DNA from: a virus | Taxonomy: Duplodnaviria > Caudoviricetes | Direction: 5' to 3' (one strand) | DNA length: 64,000 nucleotides | Virus record (IMG/VR): IMGVR_UViG_3300014208_000024 | Location: 256,001-320,000 of that record | Made by a program: the position numbers and the translations under genes | The notes under the pieces: model-generated | The model's database searches: none | What the model saw: only the letters and a program-made list of their open reading frames with translations | What the model was told of the DNA's origin: nothing | Shown: piece by piece, positions 9,712 to 28,351 of the stretch | Layout of the letters: the number at the start of each line of letters is the position of its first letter | Numbering within the stretch: the stretch's first letter is position 1

Positions 9712-10185
9712 ATGAATACAATGAAAGAACAAGACAAAAGAATGTTAGAGATTGCCAAATCATTAGAGGAATCTCATGAAGTTTATAAAGACAACACTAA
9801 AAATGTTGATGAAAACAAAATTTTAGAAGAAAACGAAAGGCTTAAAAAGCTTATTTCTAAAGACACAAATTCAGATTTTAGAGAAATCCGTGAAAATTAT
9901 TATATAGCTGGTAAATTTGGAACTGGCGGAAGGGGCAAAACTGTGAATTCTATTTTAGATGACTATAAAGACAATCCAGCCGTAAAAACACCAAAAGTGT
10001 CTCCATCTAATCTTAAACCAGATGAAGTTCTTGAAGTGTGTATTAAAAGAGTTTTAAAATCTGGAACTCCAGTAAACAATATTACATTTTATGATGAGGT
10101 AAATTGGAATATGATGAACTTAGGTTTCCCAGCTGTAAATGAAATAGACATTAAACAATCCATCCTTTCAATGATAGGAGAATAA
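9712..10185 (+). CDS. Hypothetical protein
   Basis: 157 aa ORF in operon. Confidence 0.75.
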   Translation: MNTMKEQDKRMLEIAKSLEESHEVYKDNTKNVDENKILEENERLKKLISKDTNSDFREIRENYYIAGKFGTGGRGKTVNSILDDYKDNPAVKTPKVSPSNLKPDEVLEVCIKRVLKSGTPVNNITFYDEVNWNMMNLGFPAVNEIDIKQSILSMIGE

Positions 10186-22357: not shown

Positions 22358-22412
22358 TCCAAATATGTTTTTTTATAAATATTAAAAACTTTTTTTATAA
22401 ATATGGAAAAAA

Positions 22413-22903
22413 TTAATAAACAATAGAAGATTGCCAAGTAATATTTACTATATCATCTGTAGAATTTGAATAAAAAACAGCACCTAAGTTTACGCCATCA
22501 AAGTAGTCAGTTTTTTGATTAATTAAAAAATAATCTAAATAAAGAACTGTTTTTTTTACACCAGAAGAATTTGTAATACATACGTTAATTCCAGTTAGAT
22601 ATGTTCCTGAAAGATATCCATTATAGTTGTAGCTATTGCTAAAGAAAAAAATATAATAAGCATATACTCCATTTGTCGAAAGTGTTGCTCTCATTATTTT
22701 TGTATAATGAGATGCACATCCATAACAAACATTTCCAGTCAACCCCACTCATAAACAAAACCAGTTCTATCTACTAAGGTTTGATAATAATTTATACAAT
22801 TGTTTTCTACAATTTTTTTATAACTTTTCTGTTTAAAATTTTGTGCAATACTTACAAATCCAAGTAAAACCAAAAGTATTAATATTAAAAATTTTTTTAT
22901 CAT
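22413..22903 (-). pseudogene. Secreted/membrane protein split by an apparent 1-nt frameshift
   Basis: Signal-peptide ORF MIKKFLILILL..FVYEWG* joins the ORF (G)LTGNVCYG.. if one base is added in the GGGG run near 22743-22746. Confidence 0.55.
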
Positions 22904-22907
22904 TTTT

Positions 22908-24656
22908 TTACAAATCATATATTTCATCAAACCCAAAATTCATAGCAAAATCTTTAATTAATATCCCTGCTTTTGCATTTGCCTCATCTTCTATCCATCC
23001 TCCAATGGTTTGTACTATTTCTCCATCTCCAAAACTTTTAATTTCTCTTTGTCTGTTATGCGTTAATTCGTGAGCTATACTTCTTAATATATCAACAATT
23101 GCTCTTCCAGTACATCTTATATGGTTTGAGTTTTCATCGGGAACATAAGAGGCTGTAGTGGCTATATATTCATCTCTCCCTTTGTGAAGATATATTTCAA
23201 CTGGCTCCTCTAACTCTAATCTATTACATACAAAATTAATAAAGTTCCTTATAATTTCAACTTTTTCTGGAGTCATTCCTTCAATTCCTTTTTCTACTCC
23301 CAGTGTGTTTTCTTTTTTTCCAATGCTAAAGTTATATTTTTCTTTTGGGGGATATGAATAAGAAAAATTATCGCTTAAGAATTTAATCGACTTTTTCAAC
23401 TTCTTTGAATATTTTTCTCCCGTTCCTGGTTTTAAATATGCTATAGTCATATGAGGGTGATAATCTGGATGATCGTTTTTATATTCAAAATTATCTCTCA
23501 AACTTTTGTTTAAATCATGTAAATCATCAGAATCAATATCAAACTTTAAAACATCGAAATCTTTGTTTTTAAACAAAGAAATTTCACTTAATTCAATTTC
23601 AATTTTTTTCTTTCCACTTAATGTTTTTCTTACAATTTTTTCAACATCACTGGGTTTAGTTTTTTCATGTATAAAACCAAATAGTGCAGTTGTATGAGGT
23701 TTGTCTTCTATTCCATAACCTGGAACATCATAAATGTCTTCTTTTTTTATTAAGTCGGTTATTTGTTTCCAATTCTTTATTGGGAAATCTAACATTAAAC
23801 ACCCATATTCTTTTTTAAATCCCCCTTTACCTTCTTTGAGTATAGATTTTTTTGGTTTATGTGATTCAAATAAATCTTTTTCCATTAAAGACAAAGAGGT
23901 GTCAAAAGATTTTGTTTTTATATCTGAAAGTTTATCTAAATAACCAGACTTTCTGATTATTTTAAAAACAAGATTTTCTATTGAATATTCTCCACCTTTT
24001 TCAAGGCCAGAATTTCTTAGTTTTTTTATTTTATCTTTTATTTTATCAGCCTTTTCAATAATCTTTTCATCGTTTTCTAAGTTTTGAAGACTGTCTATAT
24101 CATTCATAATAGTAGCAGCTTTTTCTTTTATAGAAACTCCATCTACTTCTTTTGTATATTTCTCTGGCTTTTGAATCCATGAGTCTTTAAGAACACTATA
24201 AACGCCCTTATTTGAAAACAAATTTTCTTCATCTTTAGCAAACAATTCAACTTCAAATCCTTTTATTTTTATATCATGTTCATCATTCCATAAAGATTTC
24301 TTTGCAGCTATATATTCTTGTAGAAACTCTTCTGGTTCCTCTAAAGAAGGTAAGTCTAAAATTAAATGAATGTCTATATCACTCATTAATGTCCAATTAT
24401 AATTAGCTAAACTTCCAGTGAAAATTACATCTTTTAAACGAACTCCTAATTTTAAATATTCCTTAAATGCTTTTGCTATTTTTAACATAGCAACCCTTAC
24501 TTCTTTTTTTAATTTATAATTTTCCCAAATTTGACTATTTAACTCATCTTTAGGCTCACTCACTTGAACATCTATATCGTTTGGAGAAATATCTTCGTTA
24601 AAAAAATTAAAACTTCTTTTTATAATATAAGGATTCCCTTTATTTGTTTCCATCAA
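22908..24656 (-). CDS. Fusion: Pol-beta-like nucleotidyltransferase + 2H phosphoesterase (Acb1/LigT-like) + HExxH metallopeptidase-like domain
   Basis: TGSLANYNWTLMSDIDIH..EVE; PHTTALFG and YHPHMTIAY (two HxT motifs); SIAHELTHNRQ. Confidence 0.8.
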   Translation of the reverse strand: MMETNKGNPYIIKRSFNFFNEDISPNDIDVQVSEPKDELNSQIWENYKLKKEVRVAMLKIAKAFKEYLKLGVRLKDVIFTGSLANYNWTLMSDIDIHLILDLPSLEEPEEFLQEYIAAKKSLWNDEHDIKIKGFEVELFAKDEENLFSNKGVYSVLKDSWIQKPEKYTKEVDGVSIKEKAATIMNDIDSLQNLENDEKIIEKADKIKDKIKKLRNSGLEKGGEYSIENLVFKIIRKSGYLDKLSDIKTKSFDTSLSLMEKDLFESHKPKKSILKEGKGGFKKEYGCLMLDFPIKNWKQITDLIKKEDIYDVPGYGIEDKPHTTALFGFIHEKTKPSDVEKIVRKTLSGKKKIEIELSEISLFKNKDFDVLKFDIDSDDLHDLNKSLRDNFEYKNDHPDYHPHMTIAYLKPGTGEKYSKKLKKSIKFLSDNFSYSYPPKEKYNFSIGKKENTLGVEKGIEGMTPEKVEIIRNFINFVCNRLELEEPVEIYLHKGRDEYIATTASYVPDENSNHIRCTGRAIVDILRSIAHELTHNRQREIKSFGDGEIVQTIGGWIEDEANAKAGILIKDFAMNFGFDEIYDL

Positions 24657-24722
24657 ATAACTATTTTTTTATAAATAGTTTTATTTTATGATTTTTTAAT
24701 TATTTATTGGAAATTTAACAAT

Positions 24723-25308
24723 ATGAATGAAAATTTAAAGGATTTATTAAGTTTTGGAAATAGTAAGGTTGGAAATGATACTGCTATTTTTAATATGAAC
24801 GCAGCATTTGATTGTCCATCAGAAAAAATCGGACTTTGTAAACATGCAAAAAACTGTTATGCGAAAAAAGCGGAAAGAATTTATCCACAATCTTTGCCAT
24901 ACAGAAGGAGACAAGAGAATTATTGGGATTTAACAGATGTGAAAACTTTTGTTGAAGAGTTTAAAGAAGCAATAAAAAAACAAAAAGAAAAACCCAATAA
25001 AATATTTACGTATTAGTGAAAGTGGAGATTTTAAATCTCAATCTGATGTAGATAAGTTAAGTTTAATTTCAGAACAACTTAAAGGATTCGTTGTAGTTTA
25101 TGTATATACAGCAAGAAAAGATTTAGATTTTAATAAAATATCAGACAACTTAGTTGTAAATGGATCTGGTTTTATGGTTTCTAACAACTTTTATATTATA
25201 GATAAAGTTGGTGATGAAATAGATAAATTTGTTTGCCCTGGTGCATGTATTAGTTGTAATCTTTGTAAGAGAGCAAAAGGAAGAAATATAGCAGTGTTAA
25301 AACATTAA
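24723..25308 (+). pseudogene. GP88-like protein interrupted by a 1-nt frameshift
   Basis: ORF 24723-25016 (GNSKVG..DCPS..CKHAKNCYAKKAE) continues in the +1 frame as PIKYLRISESGDF..YVYTARKD..CPGACISCNLC..LKH* to 25308. Confidence 0.75.
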
Positions 25309-25864: not shown

Positions 25865-25964
25865 AACCTATTTTATTTGGTTTTCATATAAATATAATAA
25901 AAAAATCAAATATCTATTTTTGTTTTTAAAAAATATTGTATATATTTGTAAAAAAACTAAAAAA

Positions 25965-26859: not shown

Positions 26860-28254
26860 TTAAGATTTGCTAATAAATATTATTTTCTTTATTTCTTCTG
26901 AATTTCCAGAATCTAAAATTCTTTTAACCATATCTGGATTTTTGTAAAATTCCTTTTCTAATCTTGCAATAGCCATCCCCAATTCTCTTTCTTGGTATCC
27001 AAGTGATTTAAGCAACTCGGAAGGTTGTATAAATTCATTTGCAAGTCTTAAAAAATTGCTTATTTTAATTCTGTCTATGTGACTTATGTTTGCAAAACTA
27101 TATATCATATCTTCTGTCATTGAATAAATTTTTTCGTTTATTTTAGGTTTTGCACTTTTTGCCTTTTGAAGATATAGTTTTTTTATAGAAGAAACAGTGT
27201 TTTCGTTTAAACTTAACAAAGAAACAAGAAAAATAATACAACTTATTTCATCAGTACTATATTTTCTAAAATTTAATTCTTTTTCTATGTTTTTTACATT
27301 ATTGTCTTTTAATAAGTTAGAAACTAAGATTATTGGATTTTTCTCTTCAATAAAATAATTAGCACTAAAAGTTAAATTACCAAATATATATTTAAAAAAA
27401 TCAAAATCTTTTAACAATTCAAGAAAGTGTTTTACGCTTTTTGAACTTTTAATTCCTTTATAAAACTCATCCCTTATTCTTTCCAAAGAAACCATTTTTC
27501 CAGTAGGGTCGGTCAAAGAAGTTCCCCCTTCCCTAATAGCTTCAGCAACATTGTCGGGAATTTTAGATCCCATTTTTGCAGCAAATCTTATAGCTCTAAT
27601 TTTTCTCAATGGATCTTCATCAAATCTATCGGTTGGATTTCCGACGGTGTTAATAACATTGTTTTTAACATCATTTACTCCACCAACAAAATCTAATACA
27701 TCTCCTTCAAAACCATTTTCTGCAATTCCAGTTATTTCATAAAACAATGCGTTGATCGTTAAATCTCTTCTTTTTGAATCTTCCTCTGGATTATCTACGT
27801 ACTCAACACTATCTGGTTTTCTTCCTCCTCCAACATCTTTTCTAAATGTTGCCAATTCATATCTGTTTCCAGATTTTGTTACTATAAATTGAATTGCAAA
27901 TGATTCTCCAATGTGCAAAATATTGGAAACGAAAGGTGCCTTTTCGAATAATGTTCTTATTTGATCTGGAAAAGCATTGGTGGCCAAATCAAAATCTTTT
28001 GGCACATCAATAGTTGTATCCATTGGGTTCTTTTGTAATTTTATTTCGTTTTTTACAGCGTCTCTTACGGCACCACCAACAATATACATTTTAAAATTAT
28101 TCGCAAGTAATATTTCTCTTATTTTTAAAATATCTTCTTTGTCACTTGACGCCACTGGCATATTAAGAGGAAACCTTTTTTCTCCATTATCTTCCTTTAA
28201 AAAATTCTCAAGTAATATCTTTCTTATTTTTTTTCTGGCAATTTTTTCTTCCAT
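26860..28254 (-). CDS. cca: CCA-adding enzyme / tRNA nucleotidyltransferase (class II)
   Basis: YIVGGAVRD..KDFDLAT, EDSKRRDLTINA, RFDEDPLRKIRAIRFAAK. Confidence 0.9.
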   Translation of the reverse strand: MEEKIARKKIRKILLENFLKEDNGEKRFPLNMPVASSDKEDILKIREILLANNFKMYIVGGAVRDAVKNEIKLQKNPMDTTIDVPKDFDLATNAFPDQIRTLFEKAPFVSNILHIGESFAIQFIVTKSGNRYELATFRKDVGGGRKPDSVEYVDNPEEDSKRRDLTINALFYEITGIAENGFEGDVLDFVGGVNDVKNNVINTVGNPTDRFDEDPLRKIRAIRFAAKMGSKIPDNVAEAIREGGTSLTDPTGKMVSLERIRDEFYKGIKSSKSVKHFLELLKDFDFFKYIFGNLTFSANYFIEEKNPIILVSNLLKDNNVKNIEKELNFRKYSTDEISCIIFLVSLLSLNENTVSSIKKLYLQKAKSAKPKINEKIYSMTEDMIYSFANISHIDRIKISNFLRLANEFIQPSELLKSLGYQERELGMAIARLEKEFYKNPDMVKRILDSGNSEEIKKIIFISKS

Positions 28255-28351
28255 AAACAACATTTTTTATAAATATGAAAACTTTTTAGTAATTTTTACG
28301 TTATTATTCAAATAAAGTTATTATATTTGTATAAATAATTTTAAAAATTAA

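Follow-up and report, generated by a model that had tools for sequence, protein, structure and literature searches.

A phage protein with nucleotidyltransferase, 2H phosphoesterase and zincin-like domains appears to be built on a constant nucleotidyltransferase–zincin unit with an exchangeable middle

What does a phage gain from a single gene that joins three enzyme-like domains? The question is raised by one gene in the window analyzed here, a stretch of 64,000 nucleotides covering positions 256001-320000 of a 372,283-bp virus record (28.7% G+C, rated complete by CheckV). The gene product combines an N-terminal nucleotidyltransferase domain that belongs to the Pol-beta superfamily (NT), a 2H phosphoesterase domain, and a C-terminal minimal zincin domain with an HExxH motif (MP). 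A preliminary description of the locus had assigned all three domains correctly and had recognized their fusion, but it missed that NT-MP is the conserved core and that the HExxH domain is a widespread mobile module. As judged from sequence comparisons, NT and MP are the constant unit, and the 2H domain is a middle cassette that was gained or lost at least five times. We tentatively favor the view, at somewhat less than even confidence, that the protein is a polyvalent-type phage counter-defense enzyme with independent modules.

The open reading frame (ORF) is neither a chance frame nor a chimera, as full-length relatives were found across independent assemblies. An identical (100%) protein of 581 amino acids is already recorded on a 455-kb contig, and about 55 protein clusters with 47-79% identity can be aligned over the full length (JGI, ENA, NCBI, and Logan assemblies). 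The NT-2H-MP fusion is kept in 64 retrieved proteins from these independent data sets, which rules out a chance ORF as well as the assembly artifact that the preliminary description had considered. An alteration of the ORF by TAG recoding is likewise ruled out, as the stop codon is TAA and the ORF is identical when TAG is read as glutamine. Active-site conservation was assessed in a 40-sequence alignment of full-length relatives (47-79% identity), on which an AlphaFold2 model of the whole protein was also built. In this model, residues 36-256, 281-446, and 447-582 form confident blocks, and the N-terminus and the linker are disordered. In the N-terminal segment, P9, E21, and P25 are nearly invariant (consensus PYxIRRxLxEIIxP). 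The mean predicted local distance difference test score (pLDDT) is 80.5 for the whole protein and 75-95 per domain, and the predicted template modeling score (pTM) of 0.38 indicates that there is no fixed inter-domain packing. A complex prediction for NT and MP gave a score of 0.02, which counts neither for nor against binding. The intact frame, the matches to curated models, and the AlphaFold2 blocks thus bear out a single ORF that joins three domains. All motifs that had been named beforehand (GS-x10-DID, EVE, HTT, HMT, and HELTH) are present, and their catalytic positions are invariant in the 40 relatives.

The NT domain carries G81-S82, followed after ten residues by D93-I-D95, and then E137 (in E135-V-E137) as catalytic residues; G81-S82, D93-x-D95, and E137 are invariant not only in the 40 full-length relatives but also in 28 wider relatives. 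In the helical lobe, R214, E223, E227, N228, K232, and R235 are conserved family-wide and belong to the motif GGE[YF]SxENLxFKxLR. The best family match is phrog_36119, a function-unknown family (E 2.7e-49). The Pfam model NTP_transf_2 scored 23.8 bits with residues 22-262 alone (cut-off 21) and 18.9 bits within the whole protein; it was matched by 27 of the 28 diverse NT relatives, and an MTPAP-like palm model was matched by all 28. A profile search of solved structures gave weak matches to an MNT-type nucleotidyltransferase and to GLD-2 (both E 0.012). None of the CD-NTase models of PADLOC-DB was matched by NT, the sole hit being PDC-S09 with E 0.0011. Foldseek with the whole model returned one weak row for a CdnE cyclase (E 7.8e-4; template modeling score (TM) 0.12/0.20), and these whole-model fold searches were dominated by 2H and MP hits, with residues 166-263 covered solely by helical-bundle rows. 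The fold class of NT rests on sequence profiles, and by these it is a Pol-beta superfamily nucleotidyltransferase with RNA-type/MNT-type affinity. With the template-independent Pol-beta RNA nucleotidyltransferases (CCA enzyme, RlaP) and MNT-type enzymes, it shares hG[GS], DxD, the third carboxylate, the MTPAP/GLD-2- and MNT-type palm, and the neighborhood of a CCA enzyme. It differs from them in having no Pfam match to PolyA_pol or to RlaP (PF10127, for which scans of the protein and its relatives gave no match), and in the lobe motif, which is the NT family's own.

In the middle domain, a duplicated fold rich in beta strands bears the two H-x-[TS] motifs that are typical of the 2H superfamily, and both H321-T-T323 and H402-M-T404 (the latter within PDYHPHMTIAY) are invariant in the 40 relatives. 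The preliminary description had called this domain Acb1-like. Acb1 of T4 (gene 57B) and Erwinia phage FBB1 is a 2H nuclease directed against the cyclic-oligonucleotide-based antiphage signaling system (CBASS); it cuts 3'3'-cGAMP/cA3 3' of adenosine and has a C-terminal lid with a stacking Trp (PMC9117128). The signature D-[FY]-x-D-Y-x-P-H-x-T-x-[AS]-Y and the aromatic base-stacking residue, which are common to T4 and FBB1 Acb1, are present in the domain (HMMER alignment to FBB1). In hhalign comparisons, the family profile matched T4 Acb1 around the second HxT motif with a probability of 79% (E 1.5e-5); the values for E. coli ThpR were 4.5% and E 0.009. The Pfam Acb1 model (PF23474; cut-off 27) scored 25.3 bits with the whole protein and 28.5 bits with the isolated domain, and it was matched by all 40 relatives at E<=0.01 (best 3.3e-10), with PF13563 always scoring higher. 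The generic 2H model 2_5_RNA_ligase2 reached 45.8-49.2 bits (cut-off 27), the upper value being that of the isolated domain. The closest sequence match among solved structures is the archaeal LigT PH0099 (E 1.6e-5 over 96 columns), and the top structural Z scores were obtained with drCPDase (13.5), LigT (12.8), and YjcG (12.4). The term Acb1-like therefore holds for the signature of the second motif and for the match to T4 57B, but not as an exclusive label, as generic 2H/LigT-type models score equally well or better. As the second motif is Acb1-like, yet the best solved-structure match is an archaeal LigT, we describe the domain from its sequence as a 2H domain of the phage type that bears an Acb1-like signature.

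Further differences from both groups are evident. Whereas Acb1 stands alone as a protein of about 150 residues, the 2H domain is embedded here between two other domains, and neither the Trp lid at the C-terminus nor the adenine-specific Glu of Acb1 could be mapped onto it by alignment. The LigT/ThpR group (PH0099, B. subtilis YjcG, and D. radiodurans CPDase) provides the best structure-based matches, but E. coli ThpR is a poor profile match, and the NCBIfam equivalog TIGR02258 gave 29.8 bits, which is below its cut-off of 65.7. The top hits among the Swiss-Prot AlphaFold models, P0DTK9 and A0A494TJG7, are both named 'Anti-CBASS protein Acb1' and comprise 624-627 residues with the 2H part at the C-terminus. 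With a root-mean-square deviation of 30.6 Å and a TM of 0.18, the alignment to a long Swiss-Prot Acb1 entry is meaningful for the 2H part alone. These two entries indicate that long multi-domain Acb1 forms occur in bacterial genomes.

When folded alone by AlphaFold2, the MP domain reached a pLDDT of 92.9 and showed the topology of a minimal zincin. Within H529-E-L-T-H533, H529, E530, and H533 are invariant in 50 diverse MP sequences, as are Q536, E556, R518, and D522. The HExxH motif lies on a helix, the third-ligand Glu on the next helix, and the sheet is three-stranded, which corresponds to a gluzincin-like arrangement. Fold neighbors are Wss1/SprT, IrrE/ImmA, the catalytic cores of aminopeptidases, minigluzincins, DUF4157, and YbeY. 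As the neighbor YbeY is an RNase, peptidase activity of MP is not certain. With the minimal zincins (Wss1/SprT, IrrE/ImmA M78, DUF4157, minigluzincins, and YbeY), MP shares the helix, the three-stranded sheet, the HExxH helix, and the third-ligand helix within about 135 residues, but it differs from them by its own signature, R-x3-D-x6-HExxH-x2-Q ... GG-x-I-E-[DN]-E-A-N-x2-A-G. No Pfam family was matched at threshold. A profile search of metagenomes found 2,151 representative proteins with MP at E<=1e-3, in which it stands alone (about 135 residues) or forms the N- or C-terminal module of larger proteins, with SLT, PG-binding, M23, Zeta-toxin/AAA_33, SOD, and PAP2 as fusion partners. In deposited phage genomes, tblastn detected no MP at 1e-3. 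Gp027 of a Maribacter phage, the gene of which adjoins a solo NT gene, was considered as an MP candidate and rejected. Taken by its distribution in the profile search, MP is a very widespread and mobile phage module.

A stand-alone form of MP (134 residues) is found on at least 24 contigs; at L006:6001-6405 and L007:5745-6149, its gene lies between UvsX/RecA-like and 5'-3' exonuclease (FEN-like) genes, with gp32, DnaB, and RNR genes nearby on a T4-like contig. This setting in a replication module recalls the DNA-dependent SprT/Wss1 proteases, which act on DNA-protein crosslinks. In another phage lineage (L014:6210-9067), the gene for a 688-residue protein of the type CTP_transf_like-NT-MP overlaps by 4 nt with a Zeta-toxin/AAA_33 P-loop kinase gene at the end of the latter. 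As a fusion of MP with a Zeta/AAA_33 kinase is also present in the 1547-residue protein P0209, the link between MP and such kinases is recurrent.

The constancy of NT-MP became apparent from a census of architectures, in which local hidden Markov models were run over all retrieved proteins. The census comprised 64 NT-2H-MP, 76 NT-MP, and 117 MP-only proteins. Other relatives carry a DUF3008/DUF5661 or a ParB-like insert or an N-terminal CTP_transf_like domain, and the BFVD database contains phage proteins of 812-884 residues that begin and end in the same way, including one under the name amidoligase. In a quick maximum-likelihood IQ-TREE analysis of 139 NT domains, 2H-bearing and 2H-less forms interleave; parsimony requires 12-13 changes, and the well-supported branches force at least five. 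This interleaving is why we regard NT-MP as a constant scaffold in which the 2H domain is an optional cassette. At least 589 NT-domain relatives were found in IMG/VR, and the best 80 of these loci were mostly solo NT genes of 250-300 codons, with MP encoded as a separate gene within 10 kb of the solo NT gene in eight of the 80 viral loci. Maribacter phages encode NT and 2H in separate genes, at a distance of more than 100 kb from each other. The solo NT gene is present in Maribacter phages Molly and Colly and in cyanophage S-CRM01. In the literature that we searched, neither the NT-MP core nor the NT-2H-MP architecture is described.

The gene is preceded by a conserved CTATTTATA element that is common to the terminase and prohead protease genes. 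The motif TATTTATA occurs 35 times in the window (expected, 14.1 +/- 3.8), and 40% of the 194 copies in the whole genome are located 8-25 nt upstream of the ATG start of an ORF with 80 codons or more; for 56 permutations of the same composition, the median was 5.7%. Genes for the terminase, the S77 protease, and the CCA enzyme are likewise preceded by TATTTATA, and so are ORFs of 1109 to 1492 codons and many genes of the window. TATTTATA is a genuine promoter-like element. In four of the relatives (L001, L002, L011, and L013), CTATTTAT(A/T) is kept upstream of the fusion homologues, and in L001 and L011 it comes right after a terminator-like hairpin. The conserved upstream motif and the preceding terminator-like hairpins suggest that the fusion gene is a transcription unit of its own. 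Of the 'late promoter' that had been postulated for the gene, the promoter-like element stands, whereas the late timing is an analogy with T4, by which the gene would be expressed late. Copies of TATTTATA typically lie 10-16 nt before start codons; two further copies in the window are at 22374-22381 and 25887-25894 (both on the minus strand). The CCA-enzyme homologues of the relatives have a TTCGTATAA-type motif instead.

The coordinates of the features within the window are compiled in Table 1.

Table 1. Features of the fusion gene and its surroundings, in window coordinates.
Feature	Position	Strand	Basis or remark
NT-2H-MP tri-domain ORF	22908..24656	(-)	582 codons from TTG 24656, 581 from ATG 24653; TAA 22908-22910
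N-terminal ~33 residues, low-confidence/disordered	24558..24656	(-)	pLDDT 32-33 (residues 1-21)
NT domain, residues 34-257: predicted Pol-beta-fold core and helical lobe	23886..24557	(-)	phrog_36119, NTP_transf_2, invariant residues
Disordered NT-2H linker, residues 258-280	23817..23885	(-)	pLDDT ~30; sole internal disordered segment (257-280)
2H phosphoesterase domain, residues 281-446	23319..23816	(-)	H321-x-T323, H402-x-T404
MP domain, residues 447-582: minimal zincin (helix, three strands, HExxH helix, Glu helix)	22911..23318	(-)	Fold and invariant residues
Promoter-like TATTTATA	24670-24677	(-)	13-16 nt upstream of start codon
CCA-adding/poly(A)-polymerase-family enzyme	26860..28263	(-)	PolyA_pol 91.8 bits; TATTTATA at 28268-28275

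As each module retains a complete catalytic set, all three are probably active, and we propose the following function. The gene would be transcribed from its own conserved CTATTTATA promoter. Its product would consist of a scaffold, formed by the N-terminal Pol-beta nucleotidyltransferase with its helical NTP-binding lobe and the C-terminal minimal gluzincin-like HExxH...E domain, and of an exchangeable middle slot that is filled here by the 2H phosphoesterase; the three modules would fold independently, with flexible linkers between them. The 2H domain may hydrolyze 2',3'-cyclic phosphates or 3'-5' bonds by the metal-independent HxT/HxT mechanism, with nucleotide signals made by the host or cleaved RNA ends as possible targets. 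NT would attach nucleotides to a 3'-OH, with RNA as the most likely substrate, or use a different acceptor, and the zincin may cut its own exposed linkers or a host protein. Together, these activities could blunt nucleotide- and RNA-based defenses of the host. The nearest link to known counter-defense is the 2H cassette (Acb1, PMC9117128).

The closest described kind of protein is the phage polyvalent protein, in which a zincin-like MPTase hub domain resides at either terminus and 2H and Pol-beta nucleotidyltransferase domains are among the modules (PMC5512222). As in polyvalent proteins, several unrelated catalytic domains are combined in one polypeptide, including a zincin with HExxH...E as the hub, and architectures vary quickly among relatives (PMC5512222). 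The protein differs in size, genomic context, and type of nucleotidyltransferase. The polyvalent nucleotidyltransferase is a minimal NTox45-like domain that was reported only from conjugative elements (PMC5512222), whereas a full domain with a helical lobe (phrog_36119) is present here. Several further observations speak against a polyvalent-type function. With three domains and 582 residues, the protein is at the small end of the class, and unlike the genes of typical phage polyvalent proteins, the fusion gene is not accompanied by portal, MuF, or head genes. Its neighbors in the window (dUTPase, ThyA, CCA enzyme, and NAPRTase) rather constitute an island of nucleotide, RNA, and NAD metabolism, and the structural module is about 100 kb away (113-177 kb of the genome, as compared to 279-281 kb for the fusion gene). 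The MP clade is not captured by the Pfam model MPTase-PolyVal, which matched only two of the 50 MP sequences, with E 0.02. Finally, the gap between NT and MP comprises about three residues in many relatives, which suits an integrated two-domain enzyme better than cleaved beads.

The main and serious rival explanation, which we consider rather unlikely but plausible, is a coupled repair of RNA 3'-ends, as had also been raised in the preliminary description. The 2H domain would open the 2',3'-cyclic phosphate that host RNases leave on RNA, such as tRNA, NT would re-add nucleotides, and the CCA enzyme would finish the end or RtcB/Rnl2-like ligases would seal it, so that the protein would be functionally analogous to RlaP/cREC-type repair factors or to the bacterial CCA enzyme that carries an HD domain. 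The gene order agrees with this idea. In the window and all six relatives of this phage lineage that were examined (L001, L002, L011, L012, L013, and L016; ~46-72% identity), NAD-salvage genes, sometimes cREC, the CCA enzyme gene, small ORFs, the NT-(2H)-MP gene, and two small ORFs follow each other, with the CCA enzyme and NT-(2H)-MP genes being co-directional. The genome encodes RtcB and an Rnl2-like ligase, and a genome scan revealed no RlaP (PF10127, E<=1), no cREC, and no KptA. The NT palm resembles that of non-canonical poly(A)/(U) polymerases in all 28 relatives, and comparative work assigned 2H enzymes and template-independent nucleotidyltransferases of jumbo phages to RNA repair (PMC7824862). 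Two relatives with a 2H-less fusion have beside the CCA enzyme gene a gene for cREC, which is a predicted cyclic-phosphate phosphoesterase (PMC7824862), but this complementarity of 2H and cREC was found in four of six loci, which is too few to count. The repeated gain or loss of the 2H domain in close relatives indicates that it is not obligatory for NT-MP function. Among the best 80 NT loci, which are more distant, only one has a CCA enzyme within 10 kb and itself belongs to the same lineage, and the linkage may therefore reflect descent and not function. In T4-like cyanophages, the solo NT gene is located among replication genes, once two genes away from a 'cytidyltransferase'. The product of the 2H reaction would retain a 2'- or 3'-phosphate, for which no phosphomonoesterase is evident, and it is not obvious what a zinc-peptidase-like domain would contribute to RNA repair.

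It is quite unlikely, but conceivable, that the fusion protein is instead a pro-protein that is packaged into virions. It would be made late and enter the prohead, where the S77 protease would cut it at L/I-x-E sites near the N-terminus and within the NT-2H linker; the resulting parts would be injected with the DNA to act at the very start of infection. The T4 prohead protease cuts at L/I-x-E, and capsid-targeting leaders are known. The genome indeed encodes an S77 prohead protease of the T4 gp21 type (102.9 bits), and the terminase and protease genes have the same promoter motif as the fusion gene. LFE (residues 264-266) and LKE (274-276), which had been noticed as potential sites, lie in the disordered linker. 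S-[LI]-x-E (L257, E259) at the end of NT is nearly invariant in all architectures, and relatives with at least 53% identity repeatedly have [LIVM]-x-E-[SNAG] in their linkers. In addition, at least 15 ORFs of the genome start with a common amphipathic leader of the approximate form M-x2-4-[IL][RK]K[IL]I[KR]E-x-[IL]-N-x-[LI]FE[SN], the ending of which equals LFE-S in the linker. As this ending resembles a gp21-type L/I-x-E site, the linker could conceivably be cleaved, be it by the prohead protease or by the zincin of the protein itself. However, the fusion protein lacks the leader: with a position-specific scoring matrix built from ten proteins of the genome, it scored -4.3, which is about the median of all ATG starts, as compared to 18.8-46.2 for leader-bearing ORFs. 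This absence argues against routine packaging. Moreover, about nine L/I-x-E sites are expected by chance in 582 residues with such high contents of Lys, Glu, Leu, and Ile, a long distance separates the gene from the structural module, and a role of the leader as a capsid-targeting signal is itself hypothetical. The virion polyprotein that had been suggested earlier is thus backed by the protease and by L/I-x-E in the linker, but not by an N-terminal leader.

Two further explanations differ in the role that they assign to the constant unit. The proposal that the protein writes and erases cyclic-nucleotide signals, with NT making a cyclic or linear oligonucleotide as a decoy or signal and an Acb1-like 2H domain degrading CBASS-type signals of the host, appears very improbable to us. 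The Acb1 signature of the second motif, the Pfam Acb1 match in all 40 relatives, the single weak CdnE row, and the Acb1 names of the top Swiss-Prot hits are in line with it. However, NT has no CD-NTase signal beyond PDC-S09 and resembles MNT-type and poly(A) polymerase/TUTase-type transferases, the long Swiss-Prot alignment is poor, and NT-MP is widespread without any 2H domain. Alternatively, NT-MP could be an unrecognized and very widespread two-enzyme machine of phages, in which the zincin-like domain would not serve self-processing but would work with the RNA-type nucleotidyltransferase on one nucleic-acid or nucleotide substrate, and the middle slot would take up swap-in chemistry (2H, DUF3008/DUF5661, ParB-like, or amidoligase-named domains). 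We regard this idea as unlikely.

Some observations concern the surroundings of the gene and the leader-bearing ORFs. On the opposite strand, the relatives carry a thymidylate synthase gene (six of six), a dNMP-kinase-like gene (four of six), and a dUTPase gene (one of six). Sheath and terminase proteins are also encoded in the genome. In three loci, cREC is encoded directly upstream of the CCA-adding enzyme or fused to it (L011:3779-4273, L012:3543-3905, and L001:5321-6766). The gene just downstream of the fusion gene (22413-22936, minus strand) encodes a homologue of a 164-residue signal-peptide protein of L002, but it is split by a frameshift near 22742-22748, which places residues 1-55 and residues 55-164 in different frames; an error in sequencing, decay of the gene, or programmed frameshifting could be the cause. 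The divergent ORF at 24723-25016 (plus strand) matches only positions 8-91 of the 230-position GP88 model (PF17338) and is followed by a separate Cys-rich ORF of 44 codons. The whole region (24723-25308, plus strand) looks like a broken or fragmentary gene that was inserted at a site where relatives have a minus-strand ORF of 151 residues. The leader-bearing ORFs of the window start at 10185 (+), 48814 (-), 53735 (-), and 28263 (-), the latter being the CCA-adding enzyme with a weaker copy; the others start at genome positions 42985, 42593, 36836, 93881, 132820, 134199, 352657, 359011, 360048, 366714, and 90145. The leader may be a capsid-targeting or pro-peptide signal that is cut by the S77 protease, or another sorting signal.

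Overall, the polyvalent-type enzyme that we favor looks like a modular phage 'multi-tool' of an already described kind, in which NT-MP as the constant unit, the optional 2H domain, the widespread MP domain, and the conserved upstream element are new. If the 2H domain degrades immune nucleotide signals, Acb1-type counter-defense would extend to huge environmental phages, embedded in a larger enzyme. If RNA ends are repaired, the protein would do in compact form what is done by the RlaP/cREC/HAD repair sets that have been described for jumbo phages, and if NT-MP is a two-enzyme machine, it would represent a new class of RNA-end or nucleotide-signal editing systems in phages. Either way, two phage modules without a curated family emerge from this locus, namely the NT-MP core, the N-terminal part of which corresponds to phrog_36119, and the zincin of about 135 residues, which is encoded as a stand-alone protein within replication-gene clusters of T4-like contigs and elsewhere is joined to wall hydrolases and kinases.

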